A stretch of 63,935 nt of DNA, counting the filler, from Kipferlia bialata (Eukaryota): assembly GCA_003568945.1 (NCBI GenBank). It is 6 parts of 6 records of this genome, joined end to end, with 100 filler letters (N's around TTAATTAATTAA, not from the genome) between each part and the next. Parts side by side here need not be neighbours in the genome. Positions count along the whole stretch, not along the records: positions 26,532 to 39,665 come from BDIP01000985.1; 5 more parts are not named here. The stretch is one strand, 5' to 3'. Positions 14,199 to 60,987 of the stretch are shown here, in pieces; position 1 is the first letter of the stretch; each line of letters begins with the position of its first letter. Both the position numbers and the translations under genes were made by a program. Below the pieces are notes generated by a model that was given only the letters and a program-made list of their open reading frames with translations, did not search any database and was not told the DNA's origin.

Positions 14199-14428
14199 TG
14201 ACACTTGTTCACGGACTCACAGGCTGTGTAACTGCTCTGGCCCTTCTTCTCCTGTGCTGAAGAGCAGAACTGAGTTCACTCGCTGCGCCCTTATTGTAGA
14301 ATGAAAAACGGCTGAGTTCCAGTAATACAGCCTCCTTGATACTCTTTACACTGAGTGTCAGGCGCTGTCCTACTGACTATTCGGGGAAAGGATAAGGTGA
14401 CTGTGGGCAGTTGTGTTGCATGCTGCCC

Positions 14429-18427: not shown

Positions 18428-18533
18428 AAGTAAGTGGGTCAGGGTAGTAGATTGACGCTCTTAACGTGTGGCTGAGTGTCATAAGGGTGTTTATTTTGTT
18501 GCTGCTCTTCCCTTCCGTTTGCTAACCTCAGAA

Positions 18534-19130
18534 ATGTCTTGGGATGGAATTCTGAGCCAGATGCTGACCTCCAAGGGCAACTGCACTGAGGGTGCTGTCT
18601 ACGGACGCAACGGTGCTGTGTGGGCCAAGTCTGCCAACTTCTCCCTCAACCCTGAGGTTTGTAGATGGTCATGATGGGTCTTTGACAATTTGACAAGTTG
18701 CCCTCTCTTCCTCTGTTCTCAACCCAGGGCATCATCCAGTCCATGTTCTCTGACGCTGGCCGCGAGTACCTCCAGACCAACGGACTTTACATCTCCAACT
18801 CCCGCTTCAGATTTGTTCGCGGAGACGATGAGGTATGAGTGAATGTACAGTGATCATAACAATTACACTCTTCCTTTCCGTACAACATGTTGATGTGTCC
18901 CCTCATATTATCACGACCACTATCAATATGGTACAGAGCCTTGTGCTGACTTCCAGGTGATCATCATGGCCGCCTCCAAGCCCGAGGACGAGAACCTCCC
19001 CCACGGAGCCTTCTTCATCGCCACCAACCAGACCGTGGTGTGCGCCGTGTTCCCCGCCCGCACCTTCAAGGGCGCTGCCTCCCTCGACGCCCACGCCCTC
19101 GCTGACTACCTCAAGACATCTGGGTACTAA
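18534..19130 (+). CDS. Profilin
   Basis: Exons 18534-18656, 18728-18832 and 18957-19130 give MSWDGILSQMLTSKGNCTEGAVYGRNGAVWAKSANF...TNGLYISNSRFRFVRGDDE...ATNQTVVCAVF...ALADYLKTSGY*, with the classic profilin N-terminal MSW and C-terminal LADYL..SGY. Confidence 0.92.
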
Positions 19131-24440: not shown

Positions 24441-25306
24441 TCACTCTTCACTCGTAGACGATACGCTGAACAACTCCCAGCCTGGGTATTGGGCCACCAA
24501 CATCTCTCCAACCCCAGTTATGGCAGATATCTGGCTCTTGACCGCTAGGGGTTCATATCTGTACATGTGTGGGTGCCACTCGCCTGAGACTAGGTCAAAT
24601 GTGGCACTTTCAGTGGAAGACAAGACGTGAAGGCCTCCACCTGATACCTAAGGTCAGATGTAGACACATTCTACTATACATATAGAGAGAGAGAGTCATC
24701 ATTCCCATTACCATTCCCACCAAGTCCTCTCCATCTCCAGTCTCGCTCCCAAAGCACATCCCGGCGTCCTTCTCCCATCTGAGGTGTGTGCTCTTCCCAC
24801 CCTCCTCATCCTCCCTACTATCATGTAGGCATAGTGAGCAGAGCATACCGTTGCACCATACATACACTGTATCCTCTGTGTGTATAACCACAATGCTCTG
24901 GCTACTGTCGAAGAGGTATGGGGCACCAAGGGGATCCTCCTCCCACGTCTCTGTCTCAGGGTCAAAGAGCCAGACACCCCTCTCAAAGGTGAGGGACATC
25001 TCAGAATAGACACCCCTGGCAATGACTCCTATCATGACCAGGCGGTAACCCACTGGAGCAAGGAGTGGTCCATCGAGTAATGGAGGCCAGAGTGCATTGC
25101 CAACTCTCTATACGACACGCCACTCTCTGGTGGCAATGTGCATCACAGGGAGGTTCATGATGAGGCGCGCCTTTCCGGCATAAGGACCGGAGGATATACG
25201 TTCTGCACCTCCCAGGACATACAGAGAACCCCTGTGGACAAGTTGTCCGACAACTGGAGGGGAGGAAGACCGGTGTATTTGGGGGAGTATCGACAACGTA
25301 GTACAT
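24441..25306 (-). pseudogene. Kelch-type beta-propeller gene, apparently disrupted
   Basis: Kelch-like motifs GSLYVLGG...ATREW, RLVMIG...VWLFDPETETW and ATFDLVSGEW. There is an in-frame TAG at 25108-25110 and no in-frame ATG. Confidence 0.55.
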
Positions 25307-25726: not shown

Positions 25727-26431
25727 TCACTCTGAGATAGTCAGAGTTGGGTTGTTCTTAAAATAGCAAGTGTAGACAAAGAAAGGCACCCTGACCTCCT
25801 GACCTGGGATACATTGGTAGGTGATGGTGTTAGTGTTGTTGTAGTTTGGCCAGGACACGGTGTTCCCCTGGCGGGTGATGGTGACAGTATCTGGTCTGTT
25901 ACATCGTAGGGCATAGTGAGAACGTGAAGTATTTGTCTGCAACTCAAAGTGAACATCATGACTAGAGGTCAGTGTCCAAGTCCGATCACCACTGGGGATA
26001 ATGAGAACGAGTGGATTAATGTGTCTCAAGTTAGGCTTTGGTGCCTTGCTCACTGCGCATACTGTCTCAGTGGTATAGTCATTGACCTCAAAGCGAGCCA
26101 TGGCTATTACGATTGGACACTCTGCCCCCTCAGGCAGCACTGCCCCTTCCACATAGTCCTCTGTCACTCTGGCCCCTTGCATATCACACCCACTGAGGTC
26201 AGCGTCTCTCAGATCAACACCTTCTAGGTCCCACCCCTTCATATCGACTCCACTGATACACACCCCTCGCACACTCTTTACACCTAGTAGCTGATCCACT
26301 GTCAGTCGTCTGACCCCACTAAGAGTAGCCCTACTGAGGTCACAGTCAGAAAGGGTGGCCCCAGTCACATCACACCCAGTCAGGTCAGCACCTGAGAAGT
26401 CTGACCCCGTGCAGTCTGTGTCGGTCAGGTC
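25727..26431 (-). CDS. Pentapeptide-repeat protein, C-terminal part (5' truncated)
   Basis: Intronless ORF with A(D/T)LxG-type repeats (DFSGADLTGCDVTGATLSDCDLSRATLSG...VDLRDADLSGCDMQGA) followed by a beta-rich tail. Confidence 0.85.
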   Translation of the reverse strand, partial: DLTDTDCTGSDFSGADLTGCDVTGATLSDCDLSRATLSGVRRLTVDQLLGVKSVRGVCISGVDMKGWDLEGVDLRDADLSGCDMQGARVTEDYVEGAVLPEGAECPIVIAMARFEVNDYTTETVCAVSKAPKPNLRHINPLVLIIPSGDRTWTLTSSHDVHFELQTNTSRSHYALRCNRPDTVTITRQGNTVSWPNYNNTNTITYQCIPGQEVRVPFFVYTCYFKNNPTLTISE

Positions 26432-26531
26432 NNNNNNNNNNNNNNNNNNNNNNNNNNNNNNNNNNNNNNNNNNNNTTAATTAATTAANNNNNNNNNNNNN
26501 NNNNNNNNNNNNNNNNNNNNNNNNNNNNNNN
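26432..26531. other. Artificial contig linker
   Basis: N44-TTAATTAATTAA-N44. Confidence 0.97.
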
Positions 26532-26585
<54 letters not shown>

Positions 26586-26659
26586 AGTAGATATACAGAC
26601 GGACAAGGTGACTCTCCTATAGTTATGTGACTAACATACGGTGTGTAGTACGATATACT

Positions 26660-26693
<34 letters not shown>

Positions 26694-26753
26694 CAAGTAA
26701 GGTCTACTGTAGGTAGCCGATATAATCTTACCTCACGATGAAGGCGAGGCCAG

Positions 26754-29137
26754 CGAGCCGGAACTGCTTGTATGGCATCTCTTGTACCTCTCTATATCAA
26801 CAAGGTAATGGCCAAGAGTATCTAGGACAGTATAGAGTGCCACCCCAGATACCACAACGGTGTAGAGTCAAGTAGACAAACACAACTAGCCCCTTTCCCA
26901 AAAACACATGCTAGACCCTTTTGCCAGAGTTTTCAACCGTCCATGTGAGGCAAAGAGATCCTCTCCATACGTTGAACCGGTGCACCCTATTGGTACCGGG
27001 TCCCATGACGGACCGACAGGACTTGATCAACCTGCTAGGTACTACTGCTGATATACATCATGATTAGAGGCATAGAGTGTGAAGGAGTTCACTCCATGTG
27101 TCTTTGTGCCATTTGACTTTATCATACCTGTCCTTCACTACGGTATCTAGTGCAGTAACAGGGTGCCTATATACCACCATTGTCGCACATATATCATACT
27201 TCTGGTCAGTTTTGCACAACAGGTGGCGGTCTAAATGTGTGTATTTCATTTTCGACCTATGTCCAAATCTCGATTTGTATATAGCCCCCATGTATATATA
27301 TGTGGATCTACCCCCCTTCCTCTCCATCTGATGTCTAGATGAGCTCAAGCAGATGCCTGAGGTCGCCACCCAGCTGGGGGTGGGCAGGATAGATAGGTAT
27401 GGACCCTTGCCAATTGCCCAAACATCACACCGAAATATATGTGTATATATGTGATTATATCTGGAATCCTGTGCGTATATATCGACTGGTGGGTATATAT
27501 TGGGTTCTATGAGGTACTCTCCCTCCCCTCCATTGTCTTACTCTTGTAGTATCTGTGGGTAGTGCCCTACATACAGTGTGTAGACGTCTGATATTTGGCA
27601 CAAACGGTGTCACATACACTCTCTCCTTCTGTATCACTACTCTCGTGCCCTCTTACTATCACACACCCTGTTCGAACGAGTTTCCCCTCCCCCCTCCATC
27701 CCTCTGTCTTTATATGTATTGTCAAAACGATGACGTCTCTCTTTCTCCCTCAGTATTGTCTCTCTCTCTCTCTCTCTCTCCCTCTGCGCCCTTATTCCAG
27801 GTTGATGAAGTCTGTTATGGGCAACACCCTCTGCAGTGACAGTCTCTCTCTCTCTCTCTCTCCCTCTACACCCTTTTATCAATAGTTTGATGAAGTCTGT
27901 TATGGCCAACACCCTATGCAGTGACAGTCTCTCTCTCTCTCTTTCTCTTCCTCTACACCCTTTAATCAATAGGTTGATGAAGTCTGTTATGGCCAACACC
28001 CTCTGCAGTGACAGTCGTGTCAGGGGTGGCAGCAGGAGACCATCGATGAGTCAGAGGACAACACCAAAGAGGGTAGGGTTCTGTATATAGATTCATATAT
28101 ATACATATATCTTTGCCCCATTGACTTTCAATGAGTCAGAGGACAACACCAAAGAGGGTATGGTGCTCTCTTTCTCTCTCTCTCGTAAGCCCCTTCCACA
28201 CATAATTCATATTCCTTCCATGGTCCATCTCTCTCTCTCTCTACACCCTTATATCAGTCTCTCTCCACCCATGCCCTTGGCACTATGTCTGTCCATGCCC
28301 ATGGTCCATCTGTCAATGGCATACTGGCATCAAAGGCTCTGAAGAACACGTACGTATATATACATATAACATTTATATACTATATATATACTATATATAC
28401 ACTTGTATATATATATATGTCCATCTGTCAAAGGCACTAAAGAACACGTACGTGTCTGTCTATGCACTATACTGTGCATACTCATAGATATATATATGAA
28501 TATGCGTGTCAATGAGAGCTAACCTCCAGCGGCAATGTCATGATCAGTGAGTTTGTGACCAAGCCCGTCAGATTCAGTGACAGGAGCACAATAGGAATAG
28601 GTATGATAATATATATAAATACATATATATACATGTATAGAATTATATATACATATATATATAGTATAGTGTGGTACAGTGTGTATGTGTAAGTGCAGCT
28701 ATTGATTCAGTGACAAGAGCACAATGGGAAAAAGTATATAGAAATATTAGATGAAGGTGTATATATATACATATATATATATATAGGTGATCGTGTATGT
28801 AGCTATGCCGGTCAGATTCAGTGACAGGAGCACAATAGGCATAGGTATGTACATTTACATATTGGTCTCTCTCTCTCGATAGTTTAATCTATGTAAGTAT
28901 TCATTGCGATACTGCTGGTCATAGTTTTTAGCATGTCGAATTCTCTCTCTCTCTCTACATAGTATGTCGAACCCTCACCATAGGTTCCCAGGAGTCCCTC
29001 TGTCGAATTGAGAGGAGGCCATCAATCCCACAGGTACAAACACATATATTGATCTACCAGTACCAGTAGGAGTCACCTCTCTCTCCCTCGCTCCCTTTCT
29101 CCCTACACCCCTAATATCAGCCCCCCTCCACCTCCTC

Positions 29138-29172
<35 letters not shown>

Positions 29173-30024
29173 ACTCCTTATCTCAGCCCCCCTCCACCTC
29201 ATCCCGGTCCCTGTCAAGCTCCATACACAGCACACGCAGGTATGTATATATATTACCTATTTGCCATATATATATATGTATATGTATATATCTCACCCTC
29301 AGCACTCAGAGCTCCCATAGCACACAGAGTACCCACAGCAGCCATGGAAATAGGGGTCCAGAGGTGGGGATTAAGGGGCTAGATGGACTCCCTCCCCTGA
29401 ACGAGGTCACGAAGCCACCGGTCAGACCCTACCAGAAGACCATGTCTCTGCACCGTTTGGAGGTAGATATACCCCCCAACGGGCAGCGTATGCAGTCCTT
29501 GCTGAGCAGGCATCAGAAGAGGGTGGGGGAGAGGAGGAAGGCGAGTGTGAGGGAGAGAGGGGGAGGGAGAGAGAGAGAGGAGGGGACCCAGAGACGCATC
29601 ACTGACTGGGAGAGGTATGTTTACTATACAGTATTTATACATACATTCATGAATGTGTTATTCATAGTAACAGAGTATTAACCTAACTCCAGTGTCAAAG
29701 CGGCAGGTGTATGGGTTATGTGTCCTATTAATACGAACTATATATGTTACTTCTACTGTATATAACTGTAGCAGTATATATTGAGATGAGTATACTAGCT
29801 GGGTCTCACCCCAGTGTCAAGGCAGCAGGTGTCGACCCCCTGCTGAACCTGGAGAAGCACAGCTGCAGTGAGCCACCCATACCTAGGTACAGTGGTATAT
29901 ATATACTAAGATGTATGCTCTTAGGTATTAATTGTCATTATTATAATTATGTATGTAGCATAGAAATTTTATGTATTAAACCTTGAGAAGCACAGCTGCA
30001 GTGAGCCACCCATACCCAGGTATG

Positions 30025-30065
<41 letters not shown>

Positions 30066-30482
30066 CTCCTCTGCCTTTCTCTGTGCATTGCACGAATACA
30101 CTATCTCGGCCCAAACCTTGTCACCACAACGCTCAGCCTGTATTCTAATAGAGTATATATACATACACATTCATATGTGTTATTGTCTCACGCCTAGCCC
30201 TGTCACCACCACCCTCAACCTCGTGGCATCGCAGCAGTCATGGGACCACCAGAGCAAGGTATATATATATGTATAGATATATAACTATTAGTATATATTT
30301 ATATAGAGATACAGAGATGTTCATGTGGCATCGCAGCCGTCATGGGACCACCAGAGTAAGGTATATAGATGTGTATTGATATATAACTATTAGTATATAT
30401 AGAGAGAGAGAGACAGAGATGTTCATGTGGCATCGCAGCAGTCATGGGACCATCAGAGCAAGGTATAAACATGTGTATATGC

Positions 30483-30520
<38 letters not shown>

Positions 30521-30647
30521 CGTCTCAGCAGTCATGGGACCACCAGAGCAAGGTATATATATAGTATACAGACACACATATGCATCGCAGCAGTCATGGG
30601 ACCACCAGAGCAAGGTATATAGATATGTATAGATATATGCTTATTAG

Positions 30648-30683
<36 letters not shown>

Positions 30684-31682
30684 CTCGTGGCCTCTCAGCA
30701 GTCATGGGGCCACCAGAGCAAGGTACATTATAATATACATTATAATATACATTATAATATACATTATAATATATATATAGAGAGAGTGTGTGTGGTTAGT
30801 CACATTCAGTACCCTTTAACCCCATGGTACCGTGGCAGTGACTGAATATGTGTGTGCAAATACTCCTACATTAATGTATATGTATAGATATATATGTCTG
30901 ACCCCTCAGGACCGTGGCAGTGAGAGCGACAACCCAGATGGGATCAATAATAGTTGTAGTATTATATATAGTACTATAGTTCATCTATATATTACATATT
31001 TACCCCTCAGGACCGTGGCAGTGAGAGTGACAACCCAGACGAGTCCTATGCCCTAGACAACATGCCAGGCTGTCTAAAGGGTCTAGCCAGTATTAAGGGT
31101 GCAGTGGTGGGGTCTCTTGACCTAGATGGTCTAGACGGTCTAGATGAGCTGGGCGGTCTAGGGGGGCTAGATGGCTCAGAGGGAGAGATTGGGAGGGGAA
31201 GAGAGAGAGAGGAGAGCCTCGAGGAGGTTGTGGTGCGCAGTCACTCGGATGCTTCGGTGCAGATGAGGTATATACAGGGTGTTACATATATATATATATA
31301 CATGTAGAGAGAGAGAGAGAGAGAGAGAGAGAAGTGATGCATCGGTGCAGATGAGGTATATATAGAGAGTGTCATATATGTATAATACATCACTCCCTAT
31401 CTACCAATACCAACTATCAGGTCCCCCCGCTCCGACCTGAGCTGCATGGTGATGAGCAGCAGCAACAGCAGGTATAGGTGGATGGAAATAGAGTGTATAT
31501 ATTGTGGAGCGTGTATATATTTTAATGTGTATGTCCATTCACAATTAGGTGCAGTGTCCTCCAGGCCGGTGCCAGCACCAGTGTGGGGTGGTCAGATAGT
31601 CAGGTATACAGATATAGATGGACACACTCCCCCTCTCTCTCTTACACCCAAGAACAGCACCGCCTCTGGTTCCTTCTACTTC

Positions 31683-31724
<42 letters not shown>

Positions 31725-32649
31725 ACATACTAGAACAGTACCGCCTCTGGTTCCTTCTACTCCTCCGTGTCGGTCTCTTCTCAGTTGCTGCCAGTCAGGG
31801 GGTCCGTCTCTGCTGCATGCATGAGGTATGTAAGATATTTGATATATCAGTGAATGTATGGTATAGTAGTATTGAGTATTGTAGATGCTTCTTCTCGCTC
31901 CATACACTACAGAGAACTCTCTCTCTCTCTCTCTCTTTATTGATTACCTAACTCTAGCGATGCCTATGGAGACAGCGATACCCTCACAGACTACGAGGAC
32001 ACTCTCTCTCTCTCTCTCTCTCTCTGTCTCTTTCTGCTAATCCTAGTGATGCCTATGGGGACAGTGACACCCTCACAGACTATGAGGACACAGACCCAGA
32101 GGGAGAGGGAGAGAGAGAGAGAGAGATTGACGAGGACACAGACCCAGAGGGAGAGGGAGAGGGGGAGAGAGAGAGAGAGATTGAGGTAGAGGATGAGTAC
32201 AACGTGGGAGACGAGGAACTCGAGAGCCCCACGCGTCTGGAGTGTGGAGAGAGCCCCACACTCCTCAACTCACACACGAGCAGACACCTACTGCCTGATA
32301 AGGGTGTAGAGGGAGAGAGAGAGAGAGAGGGAGAGAAGGTGATGAAGGGAGAGAGGTGGGTGCAGGAGGAGGAGGAGGAGAGAGAGAGAGAGTCCGAGGA
32401 TGAGGAGGAGTGCCTACCTCTGCCAGGAGAGGCAGACGAGGGTATTAAGGGTGCAGAGGGAGAGAGAGAGGAGGAGACTGAGTTTGCCGGCTCCTTCTCT
32501 GAGATTGGGGGGTCATTCTCATCCACATACAGCGTGCCCACAGGGTTCACAAGGCCTGAGGTATCTCTCTCTCTCTTTCTCTCTCTCCGTCTACACCCTT
32601 AATACCTAGGAGAGTGGCATGACTGCAGTGATGGATGACATCCAGTCCT

Positions 32650-32691
<42 letters not shown>

Positions 32692-33124
32692 TCTCTCTCT
32701 CTCTACACCCTTAATACATAGGAGAGTGGCATGACTGCCGTGATGGATGACATCCAGTCCTTCTCTCTCTCTCNNNGAGAGTGGCATGACTGCCGTGATG
32801 GATGACATCCAGTCCTTCTCTCTCTCTCTCTTTCTCTCTCTCTCCCTCTACACCCTTAATGCCTAGGAGAGTGGCATGACTGCAGTGATGGATGACATCC
32901 AGTCCTTCACTCTGTTCAACCACATATGCACTGCGTCACTAGTGATACCCCCTGAGGAGGCCAAGAAGGCTATTAGGTACTGTATATATATTGTACATAC
33001 TTTATATAGTACATGTATGGCATGTAATGTGTATAATGTACTGCATCCCTTGACATACCACCAGATGAGGCTAAGAAGGCTATTATTTATACTATAATTA
33101 CGTATGTGTGTATATACAATCCAG

Positions 33125-33162
<38 letters not shown>

Positions 33163-33502
33163 TCTCATACCTAACCCCAGTGCACTCCAGTCCCGTCTGA
33201 CCAAGGCATCCAATGCACACTCTCATTGTCTATATACTATACACTATATATTGTATCTACATGTATGCATGTTATTCACCCCAGTGCACTCCAGTCCCGT
33301 CTGACCAAGGCAGCCAATGCACACCACGCAAAGACAAGGTATATATATACATGTGTATATGCTATGGGATATATTTGTATATATTTATATATACGTTATG
33401 GGATCCTATATTATAACACACACCACGCAAAGACAAGGTATACATTATATCACAATATATACATATAGAAGTAAAGTAATATGGTGTTGATGGTTACTCA
33501 CA

Positions 33503-33536
<34 letters not shown>

Positions 33537-34019
33537 GTAGATAGGGATCATAATTCTTCTCTACATTTATTTATCCCACTATACTGATACAATAGGTCAC
33601 TGAGACAGTCCCCGGAGTGTGAGGGTGAGACTGACTCCGATGCAGCAGCCAAGGAGAGAGAGAGACTCTATGTCACAGAGTGCGTGCTGACACTGGCCTT
33701 TGACGCACACGCATGGCACAACAAGTACGTTAATGAGTACTTATTCATATATATGTATATATATGTTACACTCATTTCTCTTGTATGACGTACACGCGTG
33801 GCACAACAAGTACGTATGCTCTCTCTCTCTCTCTAGACCCTTATCTCAGGTACCCCAATGATAGTCTGCCCTACCTTCGTTATTTCTCTCTTTCTCTATG
33901 TCTGTTTAGAGCCTTATTTCCCTTACCTCCCTTATCTCAGGTACCCCAATGATGGTCTCCCCTACCTTGCCCTGATCCTGCACAGACACTTTGGACTGGT
34001 AGATACGGTATGTATTAAC

Positions 34020-34052
<33 letters not shown>

Positions 34053-34108
34053 TGCCTTGCACTGATTCTGCACAGACATTTTGGATTGGCATACACGTTG
34101 AATGAATC

Positions 34109-34155
<47 letters not shown>

Positions 34156-35493
34156 CAGGTCAGTCTGACACGGTATACCTCTGCCATGCTGGTGTACAAC
34201 AGCCTGTACAGGTATAATATATATAGTATATATATATACAGATAGTATATATATATATTGATAGATAGGCATTTACTGCATATACGATACTACTTGTATA
34301 CCTCTGCCATGCTGGNNNNNNNNNNNNNNNNNNNNNNNNNNNNNNNNNNNNNNNNNNNNNNNNNNNNNNNNNNNNNNNNNNNNNNNNNNNNNNNNNNNNN
34401 NNNNNNNNNNNNNNNNNNNNNNNNNNNNNNNNNNNNNNNNNNNNNNNNNNNNNNNNNNNNNNNNNNNNNNNNNNNNNNNNNNNNNNNNNNNNNNNNNNNN
34501 NNNNNNNNNNNNNNNNNNNNNNNNNNNNNNNNNNNNNNNNNNNNNNNNNNNNNNNNNNNNNNNNNNNNNNNNNNNNNNNNNNNNNNNNNNNNNNNNNNNN
34601 NNNNNNNNNNNNNNNNNNNNNNNNNNNNNNNNNNNNNNNNNNNNNNNNNNNNNNNNNNNNNNNNNNNNNNNNNNNNNNNNNNNNNNNNNNNNNNNNNNNN
34701 NNNNNNNNNNNNNNNNNNNNNNNNNNNNNNNNNNNNNNNNNNNNNNNNNNNNNNNNNNNNNNNNNNNNNNNNNNNNNNNNNNNNNNNNNNNNNNNNNNNN
34801 NNNNNNNNNNNNNNNNNNNNNNNNNNNNNNNNNNNNNNNNNNNNNNNNNNNNNNNNNNNNNNNNNNNNNNNNNNNNNNNNNNNNNNNNNNNNNNNNNNNN
34901 NNNNNNNNNNNNNNNNNNNNNNNNNNNNNNNNNNNNNNNNNNNNNNNNNNNNNNNNNNNNNNNNNNNNNNNNNNNNNNNNNNNNNNNNNNNNNNNNNNNN
35001 NNNNNNNNNNNNNNNNNNNNNNNNNNNNNNNNNNNNNNNNNNNNNNNNNNNNNNNNNNNNNNNNNNNNNNNNNNNNNNNNNNNNNNNNNNNNNNNNNNNN
35101 NNNNNNNNNNNNNNNNNNNNNNNNNNNNNNNNNNNNNNNNNNNNNNNNNNNNNNNNNNNNNNNNNNNNNNNNNNNNNNNNNNNNNNNNNNNNNNNNNNNN
35201 NNNNNNNNNNNNNNNNNNNNNNNNNNNNNNNNNNNNNNNNNNNNNNNNNNNNCTCTCTCTCTCTACACCCTTATCTTCAGCTGCTGCCCATGATCTCTCT
35301 CTCTCTCTCCCTCTACACCCTTATGTCAGCTGCTGCCCATGATGTAGAGCACTGTGGAGTCAGCCCAGACCTGCTGGTGAATCTGAGGTATAGTGTAGTA
35401 TATACTTTGGATTCGCAACTATATTACTATGTCTGCCTCTCTCTATCTCTACTCCCTTAACACTAGGCACCCCCTGTACCACATGTATGGGTC

Positions 35494-35542
<49 letters not shown>

Positions 35543-36874
35543 TCTCTTAACACTCTTCTTACTGTTAGGCACCCCCTGTACCACATGTATGGCTCCAGTG
35601 CCACTCTGGAGAGGTACCATGCAGCACTGGGAACATGGGTAGTGAGGTACATATATGTATATATTCAATATATACACTATATATATATATATATATATAT
35701 ATAGTATATAGTGTACATGGGTAGTGAGGTGAGGATATACTATATGATGCCACTTTTGGCAATGTAATATATAGGTAACGTATATACCATTCTTGATATC
35801 TGCTTACACCCAGGTACTACCGCCTGTTCGACAATCTCCCCCCTGCCGAGAGTGCCTCCTGTACAGACATGGTGTATGCACTGATAATGGCCACAGACCC
35901 TAAGGTATACATTATATATACACTGTATGTACTATAGTATATATATATACATATACTATATAGTGCCGAGAGTGCATCCTGTACAGACATGGTGTATGCA
36001 CTCATAATGGCAACAGACTCTATGGTATATGATGACATATATAGAGTGCCGCTGGTCAAAAGATTTCCTATACATTATCAGTGTACTACATCTTCACATA
36101 CTCTTCTCTATTATCTTTAATCTATCTGACATCCAGACCGTCTTTGAGAGTGCCGATGACCTCAACAGACTCTGCAGCAAGGCATTCAGTGGCACAATCA
36201 ACCAGCTTCTATCCTTTGAGGAGGTAAGATAGCTATGTAACGCGACATAACTCAATGATTATAGATATAACGCTAGTTACTGACTAACCCCATCAGGAGC
36301 AGGATGTGCTCATGGCCTCCATCATCAGAATGGCAGACATATCAAACGCCTCAAGGTATAATAGTAAATGCAATTATTCATATAGTATATGCATGACTTC
36401 ATACTATTAGTACGTTTGGCCTCCATCATCAGGATGGCAGACATCAGTAATGCATCAAGGTATTATTGCATATGTTTACGTACATGTATAAATAGTATAT
36501 GCATCACTATGAAAGCAAGTGTGTATATTCATGGCCTCCATCATCAGGATGGCAGACATCAGCAATGCATCTAGGTAGAATTGAATACATTTATATATGT
36601 TATCTTTGTATACTGTATACAAATCGATACGATGGGCTAAACACTACATGTATAGGTATATGCATAAGTATATATACTATATAATTGGCAGACATCAGCA
36701 ACGCATATTTGTATCCATAGATGAATGATACAATGAAGTGATTGCCCTATCCGTATCATCTACCAATTTGGGTGTGCTTCTTTATGTATCGCCCTCACCC
36801 CCAGGCCATTCCCAGTGGCCAAGGCACACTCTCTCAACGTCATGAGGGAGTTCTTCAGAACAGGTATGGTCATA

Positions 36875-36910
<36 letters not shown>

Positions 36911-38831
36911 ACCCCTAATCCGGGCGATATCGAGGAGGCCTATTGTTTGTCTCATTCTCTCTCTCTCTCTCCATCTACACCCTCAATCCAGGCGATATTG
37001 AGGAGGCCTATGGACTAGAGGTCGGGGCCTTTAGAGACAGGGCTGAGGGGGCAGAGAGCATCAGAAAGTGTCAGGTACACCCATTTTTACAAGATTATTT
37101 TCCGCTAAGTTGCAAACACCACATCTTTACCATATATGTATATTTAGACAGAGCTGGGGGCAGATAGCATCAGATAGTGCCAGGTACACAATTTTACAAT
37201 ACTTATGTCCACAAAGTTGCAAATATGCCACATTATTAGCATGTATTATAGAGACAGAGCTGAAGGGGCAGAGAGCATCAGAAAGTGCCGGGTACATTCT
37301 ATTACAAGAGAGTATTCAAGACTAGTTCCTCTCTTCTACTCATGCAATGTGCATATATATTGTGTATCGACAGTGTTCCCTAATATCAGGTCTCCTTCAT
37401 CTCGTATATCGTGAGGGACTCTCTGGATACACACATAGAGATATAACAGTACATACATGTGTATATGTGTATATATGTACTGTATCCTTACTGTCAGGTC
37501 TCCTTCATCTCGTATGTCGTGAGGGTCTATGCATAGCCTTAGCTTAGAAACATACATACATACTACATGCCTGTGTATATATATGTACTGTATCCTTACT
37601 GCCAGGTCTCCTTCATCTCGTATGTGGTCAGGGTATATGCTGAGTCACTCAGAGACTTTGCAGCATGCCTCAACCTGACAGGTAGGATAATAATAATATA
37701 ATAGTAATATAGAATGTATCGTGTATACTTGACTGGTATCACAATGTATATACAGAAGCAGGATTGAAAATGGAGAGAAAGGGACTTTGCAGCATGCCAT
37801 ACAGGTGTGCGTGTGTATATATAGTGGACATATATATATATACGTTTGTGTGTGTGTGTATATAGTGGATATACATATGGGTGTGTGTGTATATATTGCA
37901 TCTATTTAGTAACTAGAAGTATTGTCGTGTAATACATACTATACTAGGGTGAACAAGAACATCCAGCCACCTCACCTAATTAACGTTATATATAGTGTTG
38001 GATAGTGTGCTAACCTCCAGGTGAGAAGGAGAGCGAGCGGGAGAGAGAGAGGCAGGCCCTGGGCTCCCTAGATGCAGACGGGGAGACTGACATTGACTCC
38101 TTCGACATCGATGGAGAGTGGGAGGAGGGGGCAGACGCCCGTATCTCACTCGCGTCCCTTGTGCAGAGGATGATTGTGAGGTACACATTTGCGTATACAC
38201 TATATATACATATATGTATAGAGAGAGATTGGTGGAGAGTGGGAGGAGGGGGCAGACGCTAGGATCTCATTAGCGTCCCATGTGCAGAGGATGATCGTAA
38301 GGTACTCTCCTGAATGGGAATATATATGTACAAGTGTATATATAGAGAGAGAGAGATGGATGGAGAGTGGGAGGACATCTCACTCGCCTCTTTGGTTCAG
38401 AGAATGATAGTGAGGTAATGTTCTTCGTGAGTATATCATATACGCATCTCTCTTGCATCGTTCCAGTCCAGAAGATGACCCCATTCAAGTGCATATATGT
38501 TTATAAGTATTAAGAATTGTTATAACTTTAAGTATATAGTGTTATGTAACTATAAGTATATAGCGTATATTAGACTATGTTCTAATGCCCCAGGATGGAC
38601 TCCAACAGAGATGAGTGGGACGACGTGGATTATATATAGTATAGTATACTATATAGTATAGTGTTCAAGACCGATTGTATATATGAGTGTATATACATAT
38701 ATATGTGGGTGTATATAGATATATGATATATGAAATGTCTCTAATGCCTCAGGATGGACTCCAACAGAGATGAGTGGGACGACGTGGAGAGTGAGGTGGA
38801 GGACGTGGTGGCATGCCTCAACGACCGTTGA
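26754..38831 (+). CDS. Class I 3',5'-cyclic nucleotide phosphodiesterase with a long low-complexity N-terminal region (5' partial, gap at 34316-35252)
   Basis: Catalytic motifs occur in order: AAAHDVEHCG, LERYH, IMATD, RMADISNASR|PF, MREFFRTGDIE, CQ|VSFI and NRDEW. The YHNxxH exon is expected to fall inside the N-gap. Confidence 0.88.
27790..38630 (+). repeat. Serial intronic partial copies of adjacent exon edges throughout the PDE gene
   Basis: Direct repeats of 20-70 nt exon segments, for example 27801/27886/27973, six versions in 30197-30722, four in 36297-36706 and three in 38021-38414. Confidence 0.9.
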
Positions 38832-38947
38832 CCGTTGACCGTTGAGAGAACGGAAGAGGAAAGGAGAGGGAGAGAGAGAGAGAGTATTGGGAGAGAGTGT
38901 GTCTAGTTATTAGTTTTCCGTGCAGAGTCCTGAGAGACATGCTGTAG

Positions 38948-38981
<34 letters not shown>

Positions 38982-39606
38982 TGTAAAGGCAGGCGGTTGC
39001 AGAGAGGGGGGGAGAGAGAGAGAGAGCACTGGCAATTGTCTCTCAGGGTGTATATGTGGGGTCTATGTATCCTGCAGCCCCTGATGGGATTTGTTACGCT
39101 TCAGTGTGTACATTATTCGTGTGATTCATTTACGGAGAGTGTTCGGATAGAGTTAGATAAGATGTGTCAATAGACGTATTAGTTACTTGTCGGGATTGGG
39201 GTTTCAGTCTGTTGAATCAAAGGAATACAAAGAACTGACTTTCATTCAAAGAACTAAGTGTAATAGCACTCGAAGTAATCTATTTCTAGCACCCAACCAC
39301 TCAGTTAAGCAAATGCGGGCACAGTAGATAGTATATAGGTGTATATAAGTAATCCACATAGGACACGCGGATTGTGTTGGTAATAAGTTGCACTCTGACG
39401 TTGTCAGAGGCCTCTCTCTCTCTCTCTCTTCCTCTCTCTTCCTCTCTCGATAACAATACAACTGGAAGCAGTCCTCGAACCACTTCCTCTCTTTCTACAA
39501 TCCTAATCCCAAAGGAGCTCTCTCTCTCTCTCTCTCTCCCTATACATCCACGGTTACTGCACCGTAGTATATGTAGCTCCCCCCCAGGATGATGGTTGGG
39601 TTGTCA

Positions 39607-39665
<59 letters not shown>

Positions 39666-39765
39666 NNNNNNNNNNNNNNNNNNNNNNNNNNNNNNNNNNN
39701 NNNNNNNNNTTAATTAATTAANNNNNNNNNNNNNNNNNNNNNNNNNNNNNNNNNNNNNNNNNNNN
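39666..39765. other. Artificial contig linker
   Basis: N44-TTAATTAATTAA-N44. Confidence 0.97.
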
Positions 39766-41519: not shown

Positions 41520-43898
41520 TCAGGACGGGTGGTAGGTATGAGAGAGCGTCTGGGAGGTTCTACTGTCCAGACGGTCAAGACGCCTCTTGAGCTTGTCAAC
41601 CTGGGGTTACTATGAATAATAGTATGGTATAAAAGAATAGTAATGGAGCATATCTATAAACTACAATATTGATTTACATAACAAAGAAACGAATGTATAT
41701 CATCAATGTCATATGGGCTACCGTCTTCTCTCTCTATCCTCTCTCTCTCTCCGTCTCACACACATAAATGTATATATACATATAAGAGTAACTGTAACTC
41801 TATACACGTGCTATTACGCCACCATCGCTCTCTCCATCTATATTCAAATTCATATATATACCTACTTCTGAGCTACCATCTTCCTCTCCTTCTCCCTCGC
41901 ATCTCTCTCTCTCTCTCTATGGATGCGTATGTGTATATTAACTAATTCACATATATACCTGCTTCTGGGCAACCATCTTCTTCTCCCTCTCTCTCTCTCT
42001 GTCTCTGTGTCTCTCTCTACACACATACATATACTAATATATACATCTATGTATATATATACCTGCTTCTGGGCCACCATCTTCTTCTCTCTCTCCTGCC
42101 TTGCTCTCTGTCTCATAGATAGTCTACCCTGCTCAGAGGTCTTGAACTGATCTGATATAAGGGTCTAGGGAGAGAGGGAGANNNNNNNNNNNNNNNNNNN
42201 NNNNNNNNNNNNNNNNNNNNNNNNNNNNNNNNNNNNGAGAGAGACACACACAGCCCTGCTCAGAGGTCTTGAACTGATCTGATATAAGGGTGTAGGGGGG
42301 GAGAGAAGAATAGGTGTGCAGAGAAAGAGAGATGTAGACTGCCGGCCCCGTGATCACAGTTCCTGTACTGATCTGAAATAAGGGTGTAGAGAGAGAGAGA
42401 GAGAGTACACACCCTTGAGAGTGGCTATGAGTTCGGACTGGTCATGGTGGCCTCTCTCCCTCTCCCTCTCCCTCTGCAGTGCTAGTCGGGCAGGGTCTGG
42501 GATAAGAGAAATCATACACTAATTACACGACTAACACATAATCGTAATCGTCTCATACCCTTGTATCCCATGAGGTGTGTAGGACCATCCATTCACATAT
42601 ACAGGAATATATACATATATGTGTCTATTTCTGACTATATTTGCATATACATAGATATAGACAGAGTACGTCCGTACCTGTGTATTCGATGAGGTCTGAC
42701 AAGACCCTGTATATATGGCTAACTATATGTATATGTCTGATTATATACATATTAATGTATACATATATATCATATATATCATACATATCATATATATATC
42801 ATATATAACTATACCCGTATACCTCATGAGGTGTCTGAGAGGGCCATATCTTACATATCTACACACACAGACATATCTACACACACAGACATATATATAT
42901 ATATACAGAGAGAGAGAGATTACTATACCTGTGTACCCCATGAGGTCTGACAGGGCCATGGCTGGAGAGGCACTGGGGTGAACAGAAGGGTATATGGAGA
43001 GAGAGAGAGAATATGCAGGGAGAGACACTGGCGTGAGTGAAGGGAGGTTACAGAAGTGTAGAGTGTAAAGGGTGAAAGGACACACCAAGTTGTGAATAGT
43101 GGATGATAAGGATATACGCACAAGTACCCAGATGCACTGGTCCTGGGCACCCTGGTAGCTATATAGATGCACCCATATACAGATACATGCATGCATACAT
43201 ACACATATATATATATATGTATCCACGTATCTATACCTTGTGTGTGTATTGATATGTATATCCACGTATATATACCTTGATGCACTGGCCCTAGGCACCC
43301 TGGGACTGGCTGTGGTCCTGTACCTAGTGGGAGTGCATATATACATACAAGTATATACATATATATNNNNNNNNNNNNNNNNNNNNNNNNNNNNNNNNNN
43401 NNNNNNNNNNNNNNNNNNNNNNNNNNNATAGAATATATATATATAAGTACCCTGGGACTGGCAGTGGTCCTGTACCTAGTGGTAGGGTGTATGTATAAGT
43501 ATATATATAAAATAGTATATATTAGTATATACATATAGTATATATATACAAGTACCCTGGGACTGGCTGTGGTCCTGTACCTAGATATCAGCCAATACAT
43601 ATCAGTCAATGGATATACTTTGAAGAGTGTGTATAGAGTATCACATGTAGTAATGGTCCTGTACCTAGGTGTCAGTCAATACACATTCATATACAGCATT
43701 GAGAATAGTACTGTCAATACTATTCACTGTATACAAACAATACCTGTATGGCGACTGGGGCTTAATTTCTCTCTCTCCCATACTCTGTATCAATATATAC
43801 TATTTATACTATCATATACACATGTATAACACTATATATACCTGTATGGCGACTGGGGCCTGGCTGTCTCTCTGTCTCTGTCTTTCTCTCTACAAATA

Positions 43899-43932
<34 letters not shown>

Positions 43933-44017
43933 GTATACCTGTATGGCGACTGGGGCCGTGTTGTCCTGGAAACCCGGGAGGGAGAGGCAGGGACACCAAG
44001 CTAGGGTTAGTTTGGAC

Positions 44018-44058
<41 letters not shown>

Positions 44059-44357
44059 GCGGGAGGGGGAGGCTGGGACACCCAACTGGGGTCAGATAGG
44101 CACACACACAGACACACACACACACACACACATATATATATGGAGAGAGAGAGATAGAGAGAGAGTGCGTGTGTGAGGGGGACGCAGGGACACCAAGCTA
44201 GGATTAAATAGGCATATGTATTGAGGGAGAAGGAGGGGGTATACAGCAAAATCATACACATACATATACACACACACACACATACATATTCATAAACAAC
44301 AGTGTACCTGGCTCCTAATCAACTGAGCTGCCTTAATCTGGCCCAGCTGTGCCTCAG

Positions 44358-44394
<37 letters not shown>

Positions 44395-44469
44395 GTATAT
44401 AGAATATACATTAACTCACTTGACTCCTAATAAGTTGGGCTGCCTTCATCTGGCCCAGCTGTGCCTCGG

Positions 44470-44501
<32 letters not shown>

Positions 44502-46769
44502 AATATAATAACATACAATAGAGTATTAGTACCTGGCTCCTGATTAGTTGGGCTGCCTTCATATGACCTAACTGTGCCTCGGTCTCCTGTAACTTGTGGT
44601 CACGGGCCTAGATGGTTAGAGGGTGTAGGGAGAGAGAGCGAGCGAAGGTACCTTCACTTGGCTCTTGAGCTGGTCTGATCTTTACACATTTTCTATATAT
44701 ATATATGTTATTCTATATATACACTATATAAATATATTCACTACTATATACCTTCACTTGACTCTTGAGCTGGTGGATCATGCTGCTATTTACATTTACA
44801 CTATATATACATATATATACTAAACGACTTTATATATACTATACTACATACAAGTATATTTACTACTATACCTTCACTTGGCTCTTGAGCTGGTCGATCA
44901 TGCTCTGCTGATATATACATGNNNNNNNNNNNNNNNNNNNNNNNNNNNNNNNNNNNNNNNNNNNNNNNNNNNNNNNNNNNNNNNNNNNNNNNNNNNNNNN
45001 NNNNNNNNNNNNNNNNNNNNNNNNNNNNNNNNNNNNNNNNNNNNNNNNNNNNNNNNNNNNNNNNNNNNNNNNNNNNNNNNNNNNNNNNNNNNNNNNNNNN
45101 NNNNNNNNNNNNNNNNNNNNNNNNNNNNNNNNNNNNNATATATATATATATACCTTCACTTGGCTCTTGAGCTGGTCGATCATGCTCTGCTGTTCCAACA
45201 GACTCACTCTCCTGCTCTCAAGGGTGAGGCTGATATTAGGGGTGTACAGGGAGAAGAGAGAAAGAGAGAGAGAGAGAGTATAAGCGGTGTACAGGGAGAG
45301 AGACATATCAACAAGCATACATATGTGTCGTCTCATCACTAACCTTAGGCTCTCGACATCCTTGGCAGTGGCACTAAGGGACCTGGGTGTCAGTATATAT
45401 ATATATATATATGAATACTATATATGTGGAATGTTTACAATAGACATATCCTACACTATACTATAGATATATATATACTCATCTATATACTATAGATATA
45501 TACATACAAATACCATATCATTGGCAGTGGCACCGGGTGTCAGGACACACTCCTGTCAGTTCATTATACATACTATACATACTATTTATACTATTCTACA
45601 TATATATATATATATATTCTACTCACATATACGTGCACATGTATACAAACACAGAAACCTGTATGATATATAACACAAATGATTTTCTCATCTATTGCGT
45701 CTCTCCAGAGCTACCACTCTATATGCATATACTATATATACTATATATATATACACAGACCCCGACGCAGTCACCATTATACTATACACTAAATAATATT
45801 ATATACTCTATATACTCTATTATATTTATACGCATGTGGAATATTCTCACCTGTTGCGTCTCTCCAGAGCTACCACCTGCTCTTCAAGAGAGGCAATTCG
45901 ACGGGACTGGTGTTAAGGGTATATATTTATATATAGAGATAGAGAGAGAGAAAGATTTAGGGAGGATATCCTGCGGGACTGGTGTTAAGGATATAGAGAG
46001 AGAGAGAGAGGAAGGGATACCGAGTTAATTTGTTATTAGTAATTAGTAATTTGATATTTGCTATTAGGTGTAGAAAGCGATATGGATAGAGAGAGGTATA
46101 ATTAGTCCACACAAACCCGCTGCACATGTGTAGAGAGAGAGACTGTTACGCTAGAACCGGTTAATGGAATGATAGGTGACACACATATACATCTAAATAC
46201 ATACCTAAATACATACCTGTGTGTCTATGTGAGTCTCTCTGTCCCCGAGTCTAGCAGTTCTCTATCTCTCTTCCTCTCATTACATATATACATATATTAT
46301 AATACCTGTGTGTCGATGTGTGTCTCTCTGTCCCTGAGTCTAGCTGTCAGGGCACCATCGGTAGAGAGAGGGGGAGAGAACTTGGCCTGGAGTGAATAAA
46401 GGGTATATGAGGGGAGAGAGAGGGAGATAGAGGGGGGGAGAACTTGGCCTGGGGTGAACAAGGGTGTAGGGAGAGAGACATACATATATGGCTCCCCTTT
46501 TGCGTCTCTGAAAGGAGGCTCTCGATATACATAAAATATCACACTGAATACCTCACAATCTTCTTAAGTTGAGCCACCTAAGCTCCCTCTCAATCCCCAG
46601 GTATATATATACACAAACAATATCGCACATACCATAGCTCTTGCGGTCCTTAACTGAGCAACCATCTCTCTCTCTCTCTCTGTCTCTCTCTCTCTCTCTA
46701 TATATATATACATACCTTAGCCTTTGCGGTCTTTAACTGAGCCACCATCTCTCTCTCTCTCTCTGTGTG

Positions 46770-46805
<36 letters not shown>

Positions 46806-46939
46806 CATACCTTGGTCTTTGCTGCCTTGAGCTGGGCCACCAGATATCTATCTCTCTCCCCCACTATATATACATATATGTATATACTAACACATATTTG
46901 TACCTTGGTCTTTGCTGCCTTGAGCTGAGCAACCAGATA

Positions 46940-46970
<31 letters not shown>

Positions 46971-49900
46971 TTACATATATATACCTTGGTCTTTGCTGCC
47001 TTGAGCTGAGCAACCAGATCAGAGTTGGTGGACTGATGGGTAAGAAGAGAACAATGAGTGATACTCTAGCATAGTAAAGGTATATGCAATAGATAATATA
47101 CAATACAGGGAGAAAGAAATCTGTATTGACACAATCTACCAGAATATGAGTATACATATCCAATACCTAGTCTGTGTACGGCAGCATCTCTCCCTCTCTC
47201 TCTCTATATATATACATACTATATGTACTATATATACTATATATATATATTTCTATACCTCCAGTCTGTGTACTGTAGCCTCGGCCTGCCTCAGCTTCAG
47301 AGCGGCACTGTCTCTCTCTCTCTCTCTCTCTCTCTCCCTCTCACGGTCCTGAGCAGAAGCCTGAAATTAAGGGTGCAGAGAGAGAGAGAGAGAGTGAACG
47401 AGAAATGAGGGAGTGTTTGTATGTGTGAGAGACAGAGATCCCCACCTGAGATCCCACTGCAGCCAGTCTCTCCCTAGCCTCCTCTGCCTCTCTCTCTCTC
47501 TCCCTGGCTGTCCTTTCAACTCTCTCCAGTCGCTGGGAGAGGTCACGGCACCTGGTGCGCTCGGCCTGTCTTAGGGGTGCATAGTAGATGAGTAAATACA
47601 ATATCGTGTAATTATGTTGCAGAGATGGTACTAAAGCACCTAAGAGGTAAGAATACTGGCTGAATAAATATATATATATATACCTCGAGAGCGTCTGTCA
47701 GTCTTACACGGTCCCGGTCGGTCTGCTCTCTCTCCCTCTCGGTTCTCTCTCTCTCGGCCTCTAGGGAACGGACACGCTCAGACTGATAATAAGGGTTTAC
47801 ATATATACTAATGTATTGACATGCAGGACCAGAGTGGATATAGATATATACACGCTCAGACTGATGTCAAGGGCAAGGTACAATATACACAAGAGTATAT
47901 CGAGATATATTGTATGATACAATTGTGTCTAGTATACCTGTAGTGCCATAGTGGACCTCACTGACTGCAGCTCCCTCTCATAACACATTACATTACATCA
48001 ATATACATATATATATTACTATATATATATATATACCTGCATAGATAGAGTGGACCTCACTGACTGCAGCTCCCTCTCAGTCTCAGACACGGCACAGGAC
48101 AGGGCGGCGGCCTAATAGTAAGAGATAAGTGTAGATTGAAACATATATATTGTCATTAAAGAGATAAGAGAGAGAGAGAGAGACACGGCACAGGACAGGG
48201 CAGCGGCCTGAATGTTAGAAGTAGCAATAGTACAAGAGAAGTGTAATAACCATATTGTAACAATAGTAATAAAGGTAAGGCAATATAGTCTCAGACACGG
48301 CACAGCAGAGGGCAGCAGTCCATTAATATTAGGAGTAACAAGAATTATATATATATACATATATATATAATAGATATAATATACATATACAGCTATACCT
48401 CACTGCGCTCTCTCTCGAGTGTTGACCTATCCCCCTCTAGTCCCTCAAGAGTGTGTGCCCAGTCCCTTCTCTCTCTCTCAAAGGTCTCAGTCTCTCTCTC
48501 TCTCTCTGCTCTCTCTCTGGCTAGGGTCTCTCTCTCCCTCTGCAGAGAGAGAGAAGTCTTAGACAGGGCGTCCTGGGCAGCTGCTCTCTCTCTCTCCCTC
48601 TCCCTTCTCTCCCTCTCGGTCTCCACCATGAGAGTCTGTAACTGAGACTTGGCCTGATGTCAGTATCAGTAAGGGTATCGGCATCGTTAGAAGCTGGTGT
48701 GTGGTTCCATTCCGTTCAAGTGGACTGAAGGCGCATTACTCTCCTCGTGTACACTGGCATATTCCAATAGTGTACACCATGTATCTATATATATGTAATT
48801 GCACCATATATATATGTATACTAGCTCATCTAACTGGCCCTTCATACAAGCAGTTCCATCCCTCTCAGCCTGCATGTACTTCATAATAATACAGATAGAT
48901 AGATATATACATAGAGAGTGAACACATACCTCGTCCAACTGAACCTTCATGGCAGAAGCCCCCTCCCTCTCAGCCTGCATGGACAGGGTGGTCTCGTCAA
49001 GGGAAGACTGGAAATTAAGATACATTATACCTTAACAATCACAAGTTATACTACTATATATACAATATGTATATGTGCCTGCATGGAGAGGGTGGTCTCA
49101 TCTAGGGAGGACTGGGGGTAAGGATGTATGTTCCGTATCAAAACTACAGTAAAACATACTTAAATATAATTACACATGAAAGATGGTTAATTCGGATATT
49201 TTACTGTAAATGGAAATTCACAACATATATACTACTATGGTGGGTGGTCTCGTCAAGGGAGGACTGCAGGTTATATGAATATATATACACATATACAAAT
49301 ACACATGTAACTACGTATATATGGGCATATGTTGCATGGAGAGGGTGGTCTCGTCAAGGGAGGCCTGCGGGTAAAAGCGACACAAGAACCGCAACACCGT
49401 AACACATTCATATATATCCTGCGAGGGACTCAAGTCAATATATGTATATATATACACACATATATATATAGTATACCTCCAGACTGGCTATTGATGCAAG
49501 TAGGTCACTTCTGGCAGACACGGCAGCGTCACGCTCAGACTCCCTGGGGGTAAAAATGCTAAAACCGCCATCACTATAGGTAAATACCATAAGAGCAGAG
49601 AACTATTTGTAATACAATAACTGAGACTCCTGGGGGTCAATGTGCTAAGAATGCCCTACTATGCAAAGACTCATTATCAGAGCAAAAGTGGCTATCGGTA
49701 TAGTAAGTATATGACCGCTGATTTACCTCAGCTGCACGAGAGATGTCAGAGCCTCCACATCGCCAGAGAGTCTCTCTCTCTCTCGCTCCTCTGCGTCCCT
49801 CTCTTCCTGCAGAGTCCGGATCTCTCTCTCTCTCTCCTCCTTAAGAGAGTTAAGCTCCTGACATCAGACGAACTATATATATATATATAACAATGTATAT

Positions 49901-52891: not shown

Positions 52892-52991
52892 NNNNNNNNN
52901 NNNNNNNNNNNNNNNNNNNNNNNNNNNNNNNNNNNTTAATTAATTAANNNNNNNNNNNNNNNNNNNNNNNNNNNNNNNNNNNNNNNNNNNN
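52892..52991. other. Artificial contig linker
   Basis: N44-TTAATTAATTAA-N44. Confidence 0.97.
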
Positions 52992-60702: not shown

Positions 60703-60802
60703 NNNNNNNNNNNNNNNNNNNNNNNNNNNNNNNNNNNNNNNNNNNNTTAATTAATTAANNNNNNNNNNNNNNNNNNNNNNNNNNNNNNNNNNNNNNNNNN
60801 NN
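60703..60802. other. Artificial contig linker
   Basis: N44-TTAATTAATTAA-N44. Confidence 0.97.
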
Positions 60803-60987
60803 GGGGGGGGGGGGGAAGAGGGGAGGGGGGGGGGGGGGGGGGGTAGGTCACACACACGACTGGAATGATAGGCATGTATAGGAATGCATGTCACACTCAG
60901 TGCACCAGTTGATCTCTATATATATACATATCTCTATACATATCTCTATACATATCTATATACTATAGTCCTCCACCCCCTGCCGCA

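Follow-up and report, generated by a model that had tools for sequence, protein, structure and literature searches.

Mutually exclusive duplicated exons are adjacent whole exons, each with both splice sites, that differ mainly by silent changes and are used in mRNA. Smaller repeats can cross the border of an exon. In intron 7 of the human F7 gene, Borensztajn et al. (2006, PMC1557585) describe a 37-bp VNTR that carries 5' pseudo-sites. In another case, introns can be born by intragenic tandem duplication, with the extra copy ending inside the intron (2011, PMC3265369). Two further systems matter here. In the hypervariable Schizophyllum commune, crossing-over is exon-biased, and crossovers between parents that are 14% diverged favour conserved exons (Seplyarskiy et al. 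2014, PMC4209137). Serine codons are known to jump between the TCN and AGY islands (Lucaci et al. 2021, PMC7954308, citing Averof 2000 and Rogozin 2016).

The window, by which we mean the whole stretch of DNA analysed (63.9 kb), consists of six scaffolds joined by N-linkers of the form N44-TTAATTAATTAA-N44. Since the scaffolds are unrelated, neighbouring genes across the linkers are not linked. In two of its genes, partial copies of exon ends, called echoes below, lie in the introns beside the live exons. As in F7, the repeat unit crosses the exon-intron boundary and the live exon stays intact (48 of 65 copies, none in the opposite sense), and the authentic site is used while later intact donors stay silent. 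The F7 pseudo-sites are identical and belong to one locus, whereas echoes are found at most exons of two genes and on the donor as well as the acceptor side. Unlike copies of the F7 type, they are neither identical nor decaying regardless of codon position. As in intron birth by duplication (PMC3265369), the extra intragenic tandem copy lies within an intron, but here no new intron results; the RNA uses the original complete exon and the existing intron grows. Intron gain at AG/GT, where copy 1 supplies the 5' part of the mRNA and copy 2 the 3' part, is not what we see, as the RNA contigs hold complete live exons. We know of no intron-birth model that includes protein-level constraint on the intronic copy. 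Mutually exclusive exons resemble the echoes in that copies are adjacent and differ mainly silently, but an echo has one splice site only and is skipped in spliced contigs. Exchange between highly diverged haplotypes, confined to conserved exons, is what links Schizophyllum to our best explanation, of which it is the premise; polymorphism was measured there and is inferred here. A serine box switch at a conserved residue is likewise shared with the reported island jumps, but unlike in those, both codon states stand side by side in one intron. A literature search over titles and abstract starts, with few subscription papers, found no paper on partial or half-exon copies with silent bias. The main text of the Kipferlia bialata genome paper (PMC5874029) contains, by term search, no mention of duplication, heterozygosity, ploidy or meiosis, and echoes are not described in the searched passages of PMC6679479.

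The first of the two genes is on the plus strand of the scaffold at 26532-39665, has short introns rich in TA, GA and CT repeats, and holds the exon studied most closely here. Its model has a 937-N gap at 34316-35252 with open frames on both sides, and the exons from 35814 onward are backed by contigs of run X2 (see below), except for the 36863-36992 joint. The spliced translation has HD..H, E..H, ATD, ADISN..RP, EFF..GD.E and Q..FI, all in order, which we take to be the motif list of class I cyclic nucleotide phosphodiesterases (PDEs); the HN..H motif would then sit in the N gap. Judging from these motifs the host gene is likely a PDE. Single-exon searches, which are weak, gave 11 matches for exon 35330-35387 (tested for the HDxxHxG metal-binding motif), all of them PDE4B with E of about 1, and no matches for two other exons. 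In Pfam, none of six single-exon pieces matched any family, these being short (22-42 aa) and not the spliced protein. The PDE family is large: a T>C change at 36832, in the exon region 36799-36865, is found in 7 DNA and 6 RNA contigs. In a contig of a PDE paralog from run X1, with a loose end at 36356, coding runs past this position, where the focal gene has its 449-nt intron, and a GT follows a few codons further on, so intron positions differ among paralogs. The second gene, on the next scaffold, encodes a coiled-coil protein. Its model was built from sequence alone; in it, the exon end at 42927 lies 2 bases beyond its proper place, and the last exon, which is not in frame, carries no scored echo. 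A long minus-strand gene at 1-13175 has dozens of short introns and three detected echo pairs only, where the two scored genes have dozens.

Table 1. Coordinates of features in the window
Feature	Positions	Strand	Remarks
N-linkers	13176-13275, 26432-26531, 39666-39765, 52892-52991, 60703-60802		six scaffolds unrelated
Presumed Rab-like GTPase gene	13390-14200	-	
Presumed profilin-like gene	18530-19130	+	
Presumed kelch-like gene	24610-25107	-	
Pentapeptide-repeat gene	25727-26430	-	Atlas lead
PDE-like host gene	27339-38832	+	29 modelled exons; 41 echo matches beside 21 exons
Live focal exon (EQDVLMASIIRMADISNAS + AG)	36297-36355	+	Ser = TCA; phase 0 to phase 2; open spliced frame
449-nt intron with three echoes	36356-36804	+	X2 joint removes all 449 nt
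Echo 1	36417-36459	+	exon 3' 43 nt + GT donor; Ser = AGT
Echo 2	36529-36574	+	exon 3' 46 nt + GT donor; Ser = AGC
Echo 3, 20-nt remnant	36686-36705	+	Ser = AGC
Next live exon (RPFPVAKAHSLNVMREFFRT)	36805-36863	+	
Two echoes of exon 38021-38180	38225-38414	+	switches Arg CGT>AGG, Leu CTC>TTA, CTT>TTG
Coiled-coil gene, next scaffold	42413-52606	-	23 modelled exons; 24 echo matches beside 10 exons
Presumed actin-like gene	55690-58730	+	

The preliminary description of this locus held that the PDE motif MADISNASR is written in four ways, and all four strings were found in place. The changed codons relative to the live exon number 5 of 13 in echo 1, 6 of 14 in echo 2 and 3 of 6 in echo 3, and 14 of these 14 are synonymous. 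The pattern GGCAGACAT[CA] occurs four times on the plus strand of the window, each time at the focal locus. Some details need correction. The homology of echo 2, whose match was extended by hand as far as the donor, begins 2 bases before the 36531 first given; the remnant does encode A-D-I-S-N-A, but diverges afterwards, with a GT still at the donor-equivalent place. Echoes 1 and 2 do keep a GT donor, but they are not without an in-phase acceptor as had been thought: an in-phase CAG is present in both (36430-32 and 36545-47) and would yield a 27-nt phase-2 cassette. It is weak, with a score of 6.2; the live acceptor reaches 14.1, and true acceptors have their 5th percentile at 7.7.

The TCA and AGY copies differ in four adjacent bases, and from these letters another reading of the switch is a slip of 2 nt, with AT in and GY out. 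It had been singled out as the striking part, but in alignments of coding sequence TCN/AGY jumps are the commonest three-base changes according to PMC7954308, and the switch in the PDE motif is an ordinary, known event. The echoes are indeed closer to each other than to the live exon, as had been noticed: they share AGG, ATC, AGY and GCA where the live exon has AGA, ATA, TCA and GCC, and beyond this block they differ among themselves by three further silent changes. From their shared changes it looks as if the focal live exon had been overwritten after the echoes arose. Such a replacement of the live exon, also proposed earlier, fits the shared block but cannot alone account for the mostly silent differences between echoes.

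Nor is the feature particular to this motif. An ungapped search of each exon against its own flanking introns, with hand-made exon models of the two genes, found 65 exon-end copies beside 31 of 52 exons (for each gene see Table 1). Upstream copies consist of an acceptor and exon start, and downstream copies of an exon end and donor; 20 upstream copies reach the acceptor, 28 downstream ones reach the donor, 17 of the 65 reach neither, and none is reversed. One end of each duplication lies inside the exon, and the extra piece is therefore non-coding from birth. Erosion of whole-exon duplicates was rejected as a source, as it would give both orientations and the count is 48 versus 0. Of the 65 copies, 33 have their open end at a dinucleotide repeat versus a background of 27%, a placement that suggests microhomology joints, and microsatellites make up 12-16% of the two echo-rich scaffolds versus 1-5% elsewhere. 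The association with microsatellites may come in part from repeats erasing homology. The flanks of echoes often show no more likeness than unrelated introns do, with 26% of the 65 passing a 5% null.

Eight matches contain multi-base silent switches in Ser, Leu or Arg codons, making the focal serine switch one of a class. Echo 38377-38414 has 6 of 12 codons changed, all silently; compared with exon 38021-38180, echo 38353-38414 lacks 15 nt in frame and so falls into two pieces (diagonals 249 and 234), and the matches at 38353 and 38377 are one echo counted twice. The focal remnant at 36686-36705 and an echo at 35279 fall below the detector and are outside the 65, as are 17 repeat pairs outside the two gene models, left out of scoring with their frame unsure. 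The clearest tandem array is at 30223-30722, with five consecutive echoes of one exon end, some of the intron parts being about 90% alike. At 14792-14909, 15451-15649, 60987-61143 and 62206-62312, runs of the hexamer CAGTAT/GATACT, and not dinucleotide repeats, lie between echoes.

Differences between echoes and live exons are mostly silent. The alignments cover 714 codons, of which 545 are the same in echo and exon, 111 carry a silent difference and 58 a replacement, and the differences fall 33/27/133 on the three codon positions. The dN/dS of copy versus exon is 0.13, 0.16 and 0.18 at kappa 1, 2 and 4, and pN/pS is 0.12-0.26 (cluster bootstrap). For a dead copy beside a purified live copy dN/dS cannot go below about 0.5. 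Simulated dead copies passed through the same detector never had a silent share above 0.49 in 360 replicates versus 0.66 observed, and with one echo per exon side there are 76 silent and 36 replacement changes in 42 clusters (P 3e-10). For each of the four bases mismatch rises with degeneracy: it is about 0.04 at 0-fold, 0.06-0.22 at 2-fold and 0.20-0.34 at 4-fold positions; the echoes differ by about 24% at fourfold sites and 4% at non-degenerate sites. Echo compared with echo gives 41 silent and 19 replacement differences at variable sites, and where all echoes differ from the live exon the numbers are 13 and 5. Trimming of the ends leaves the bias (97:43 and 74:34 silent to replacement), and it is found both in the non-conserved N-terminus of the PDE (38 silent to 19 replacement changes) and in the coiled-coil gene (42 to 21). 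Across echoes the silent and replacement counts are uncorrelated (rho -0.05), which is unlike a common decay clock, and fourfold divergence is rather even over 53 echoes and poorly fitted by exponential ages (P 0.018). Two simpler accounts were rejected: CpG or base-composition bias, as the silent excess holds for all four bases with or without CpG, and an ordering of ages by distance, as the nearest echoes have 34:12 and the farther ones 35:22 silent to replacement changes, with no clear trend. Echoes with this polarity and silent bias are real, gene-wide and beyond neutral decay, and the copies show purifying selection between them, by which duplicated exons are recognised.

DNA of the window was found in one sample only, in two runs (X1 and X2). 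The contig comparison covered two stretches with 3.2 kb in total, and X1 is perhaps the source of the window, which would make it a second assembly and not a second organism. Three X1 DNA contigs tile 36320-36856 with 0 differences at depths of 457, 434 and 454; echo 1 is in contigs 1 and 2, echo 2 in contigs 2 and 3, and echo 3 in contig 3. One X1 contig of 1665 nt spans 36986-38620 with eight further echoes, including those at 38225-38414, and has 0 differences at a depth of 407 (37816-37897 skipped as repeat). There is no X1 DNA contig over 35954-36304, which proves nothing either way. The echo junctions are real in DNA, with even depth, and are not assembly joins; the concern raised earlier, that alleles or paralogs had been mis-joined, was examined and does not hold, as the X1 contigs reproduce the junctions with 0 differences.

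By its GT..AG joints, X2 is a probable RNA run. Around the focal exon the joints are 36221>36295 and 36353>36803. In X2 contigs the live exons are matched with 0 differences, and five echo-bearing introns (12 of the 65 matches) are removed whole; the joint 38178>38751 skips the echoes at 38225-38414. The contig across 36353>36803 has 0 differences in the next exon. The depth of this joint, 316, equals 168.4 (0-difference contig) plus 147.6 (paralog with 9 differences), and we infer that it pairs the two. A joint at echo 2 (36572>36803, depth 228.8) occurs in a contig which is a paralog, as it has 5 differences in 54 bases of the next exon, and the sole AGY-like spliced X2 contig is a paralog. 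As to which codon version is in the transcript, X2 splices the intact TCA exon only, and the earlier view that the echoes are not ordinary repeated exons is borne out by the spliced contigs, which skip them.

Dead intronic copies should decay regardless of the genetic code, and the echoes in two unrelated genes do not. It is likely that the mostly silent differences arose at a time when the sequence served as a working exon, on a different and strongly diverged haplotype. As other mechanisms fall short, the differences would have built up in working exons on different haplotypes. In full, we propose tandem duplications in which the exon part came from alleles about 25% diverged at silent sites, or in which the live exon was later overwritten by such alleles; we see this fuller account as evenly poised between right and wrong. 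As a first step, repair or crossover between haplotypes would begin in a conserved exon, be unable to finish in the diverged, microsatellite-rich intron and be closed at a staggered microhomology joint, leaving the exon end doubled. By term search, the Schizophyllum paper (PMC4209137) does not mention duplications or indels at crossovers, and its searched passages leave duplication scars unmentioned, so this step is without direct precedent there. As a second step, the doubled piece would be copied from the other allele, or the live exon overwritten by one afterwards, and repeated rounds would produce a row of echoes sampling several alleles. The echoes would be harmless because only the complete exon is recognised, and would be lost before much random decay accumulates. 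The focal set could then be a series of snapshots of one exon, with other alleles rewriting it at a pace above that of point mutation, and its shared silent block with three further differences fits this. Splice dinucleotides are mostly kept in the echoes (GT in 32 of 40, AG in 22 of 25), as expected of recently working sequence; together with the uncorrelated counts and with flanks no closer than unrelated introns, this fits the origin from alleles.

Origin from alleles implies a very polymorphic, recombining population whose fourfold sites differ by about 24%. We assume the donor alleles and do not observe them, as a second allele is absent from the contigs of the sample. At an identity of at least 85%, a single RNA contig covers exons 35814-35904 and 36137-36223; in 36912-38940 no variant letters are listed, and among the matches listed there is, low-complexity matches aside, no contig of at least 92% identity that could be a donor of the echoes. 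No relatives were found by protein searches with single exons or ORFs, by a search of 50% clusters with a 30-aa exon, or by translated and exact-DNA-pattern scans of metagenomes, all with short, weak queries. Further observations count against the proposal: the fourfold divergence is rather even, where a panmictic coalescent would spread it widely, and the concentration of echoes in two of six scaffolds needs hotspots.

It is also conceivable, though unlikely, that some translation of the echoes occurs, at a low level or at a different life stage, with the echoes used as cassette or alternative exons or joined non-canonically within the repeat, so that selection on the protein is direct. This would account for the low dN/dS among echoes and for kept splice sites, as among the echoes 29 of 40 donors and 19 of 25 acceptors are above the 5th percentile of true sites. 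Repeat periods that are a multiple of 3 (29 of 65, P 0.04) and the in-frame deletion of 15 nt point the same way, and low usage is compatible with the RNA data, since contigs drop rare forms and low-level use would escape them. Against direct use, no echo copies in mRNA are present in the X2 contigs of the two stretches (contigs, not raw reads), which remove introns with echoes whole while unspliced intron contigs, at depths of 3.6-4.9, survive in the same run. Moreover, none of the 25 upstream echoes and 1-3 of the 40 downstream ones have an in-frame partner site as strong as true sites are, versus 2 of 40 out of frame, and one echo contains a stop codon. Read-through at alternative splice sites was rejected, as the frame is open up to the echo site in only 7 of 65 cases. 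One of the seven is at 35399-35704, with the frame open from an upstream echo, across a CT tract, into the live exon.

Ectopic conversion is quite unlikely; here, echoes or live exons would be copied from paralogous genes, including paralogs since lost. In its favour, the 7 DNA contigs with T>C at 36832 speak for a large PDE family. Some paralog transcripts agree better with the end of the live exon and others with that of echo 2 (joints at 36353 and 36572), and the two codon styles are therefore probably both present in the family; conversion could in this way account for the TCA block in the focal exon. The paralog contigs nevertheless do not match the echoes exactly (on echo 2, 5 of 42 letters are different), and the bias is no weaker in the non-conserved PDE N-terminus and the coiled-coil gene, where a replacement divergence of just 3-4% needs allele-like donors. 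Present paralogs can explain a catalytic exon, but they leave the non-conserved and the coiled-coil exons unexplained. It seems very doubtful to us that the echoes form a maintained library in cis of exchangeable exon halves, which would stay coding through routine swapping into the message or the gene; if the join fell within the repeat, each copy would need a single splice site.

Selection might also act indirectly, if frequent conversion between echo and live exon, or pop-out, made replacement changes in echoes costly. Annealing and conversion proceed readily between direct repeats 60-500 nt apart that have fragile microsatellites between them. With conversion in both directions and replacement changes taken as lethal, however, a deterministic model gives a ratio of 0.51-0.56 and not 0.15, and by algebra the same floor would apply to pop-out. 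We regard indirect selection as highly improbable, and it is largely refuted unless the mutation rates of exon and echo differ several-fold. Plain neutral tandem duplicates, with a silent bias from detection, mutation spectrum or small numbers, deserve very little credence. Repeats at exon boundaries with silent pseudo-donors are known (in the passages on F7 intron 7, PMC1557585), and our echoes come from ungapped alignment on hand-made models, but the bias survives the detector-matched simulation, the end trimming, the base and CpG strata and the independent set. An assembly artefact that strings alleles or paralogs together is next to incredible, although the window is made of short scaffolds with N gaps, one match beside a 3-N gap (32777) may be false, and the three focal contigs overlap only in a shared 29-nt repeat with their order on one molecule unproven, as a second assembly gives every tested junction at single-copy-like, even depth with 0 differences, one contig of 1665 nt being unbroken.

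The best explanation, origin from alleles, is itself new: introns would serve as an archive of the alleles of earlier recombination partners, and one genome would be enough to read it. If it is true, one genome directly estimates silent diversity, gives evidence of recombination between lineages in a protist with one sample found, and could, through thousands of genome-wide echoes, map hotspots and the mode of repair. If the host is an intron-rich fornicate, as the short distance from branch point to acceptor (see below) hints, this bears on sex and repair in that group. According to the passages on repair in PMC8516963, fornicates repair DNA without NHEJ or Rad51A and have two Dmc1 paralogs. 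For gene prediction, the echoes mean that near-perfect spare splice sites are ignored, on the donor as well as the acceptor side. In the 52 exons of the two modelled genes, the distance between a branch-point-like CT(N)AY and the acceptor AG is only 4-8 nt, and nearly always 5-7.
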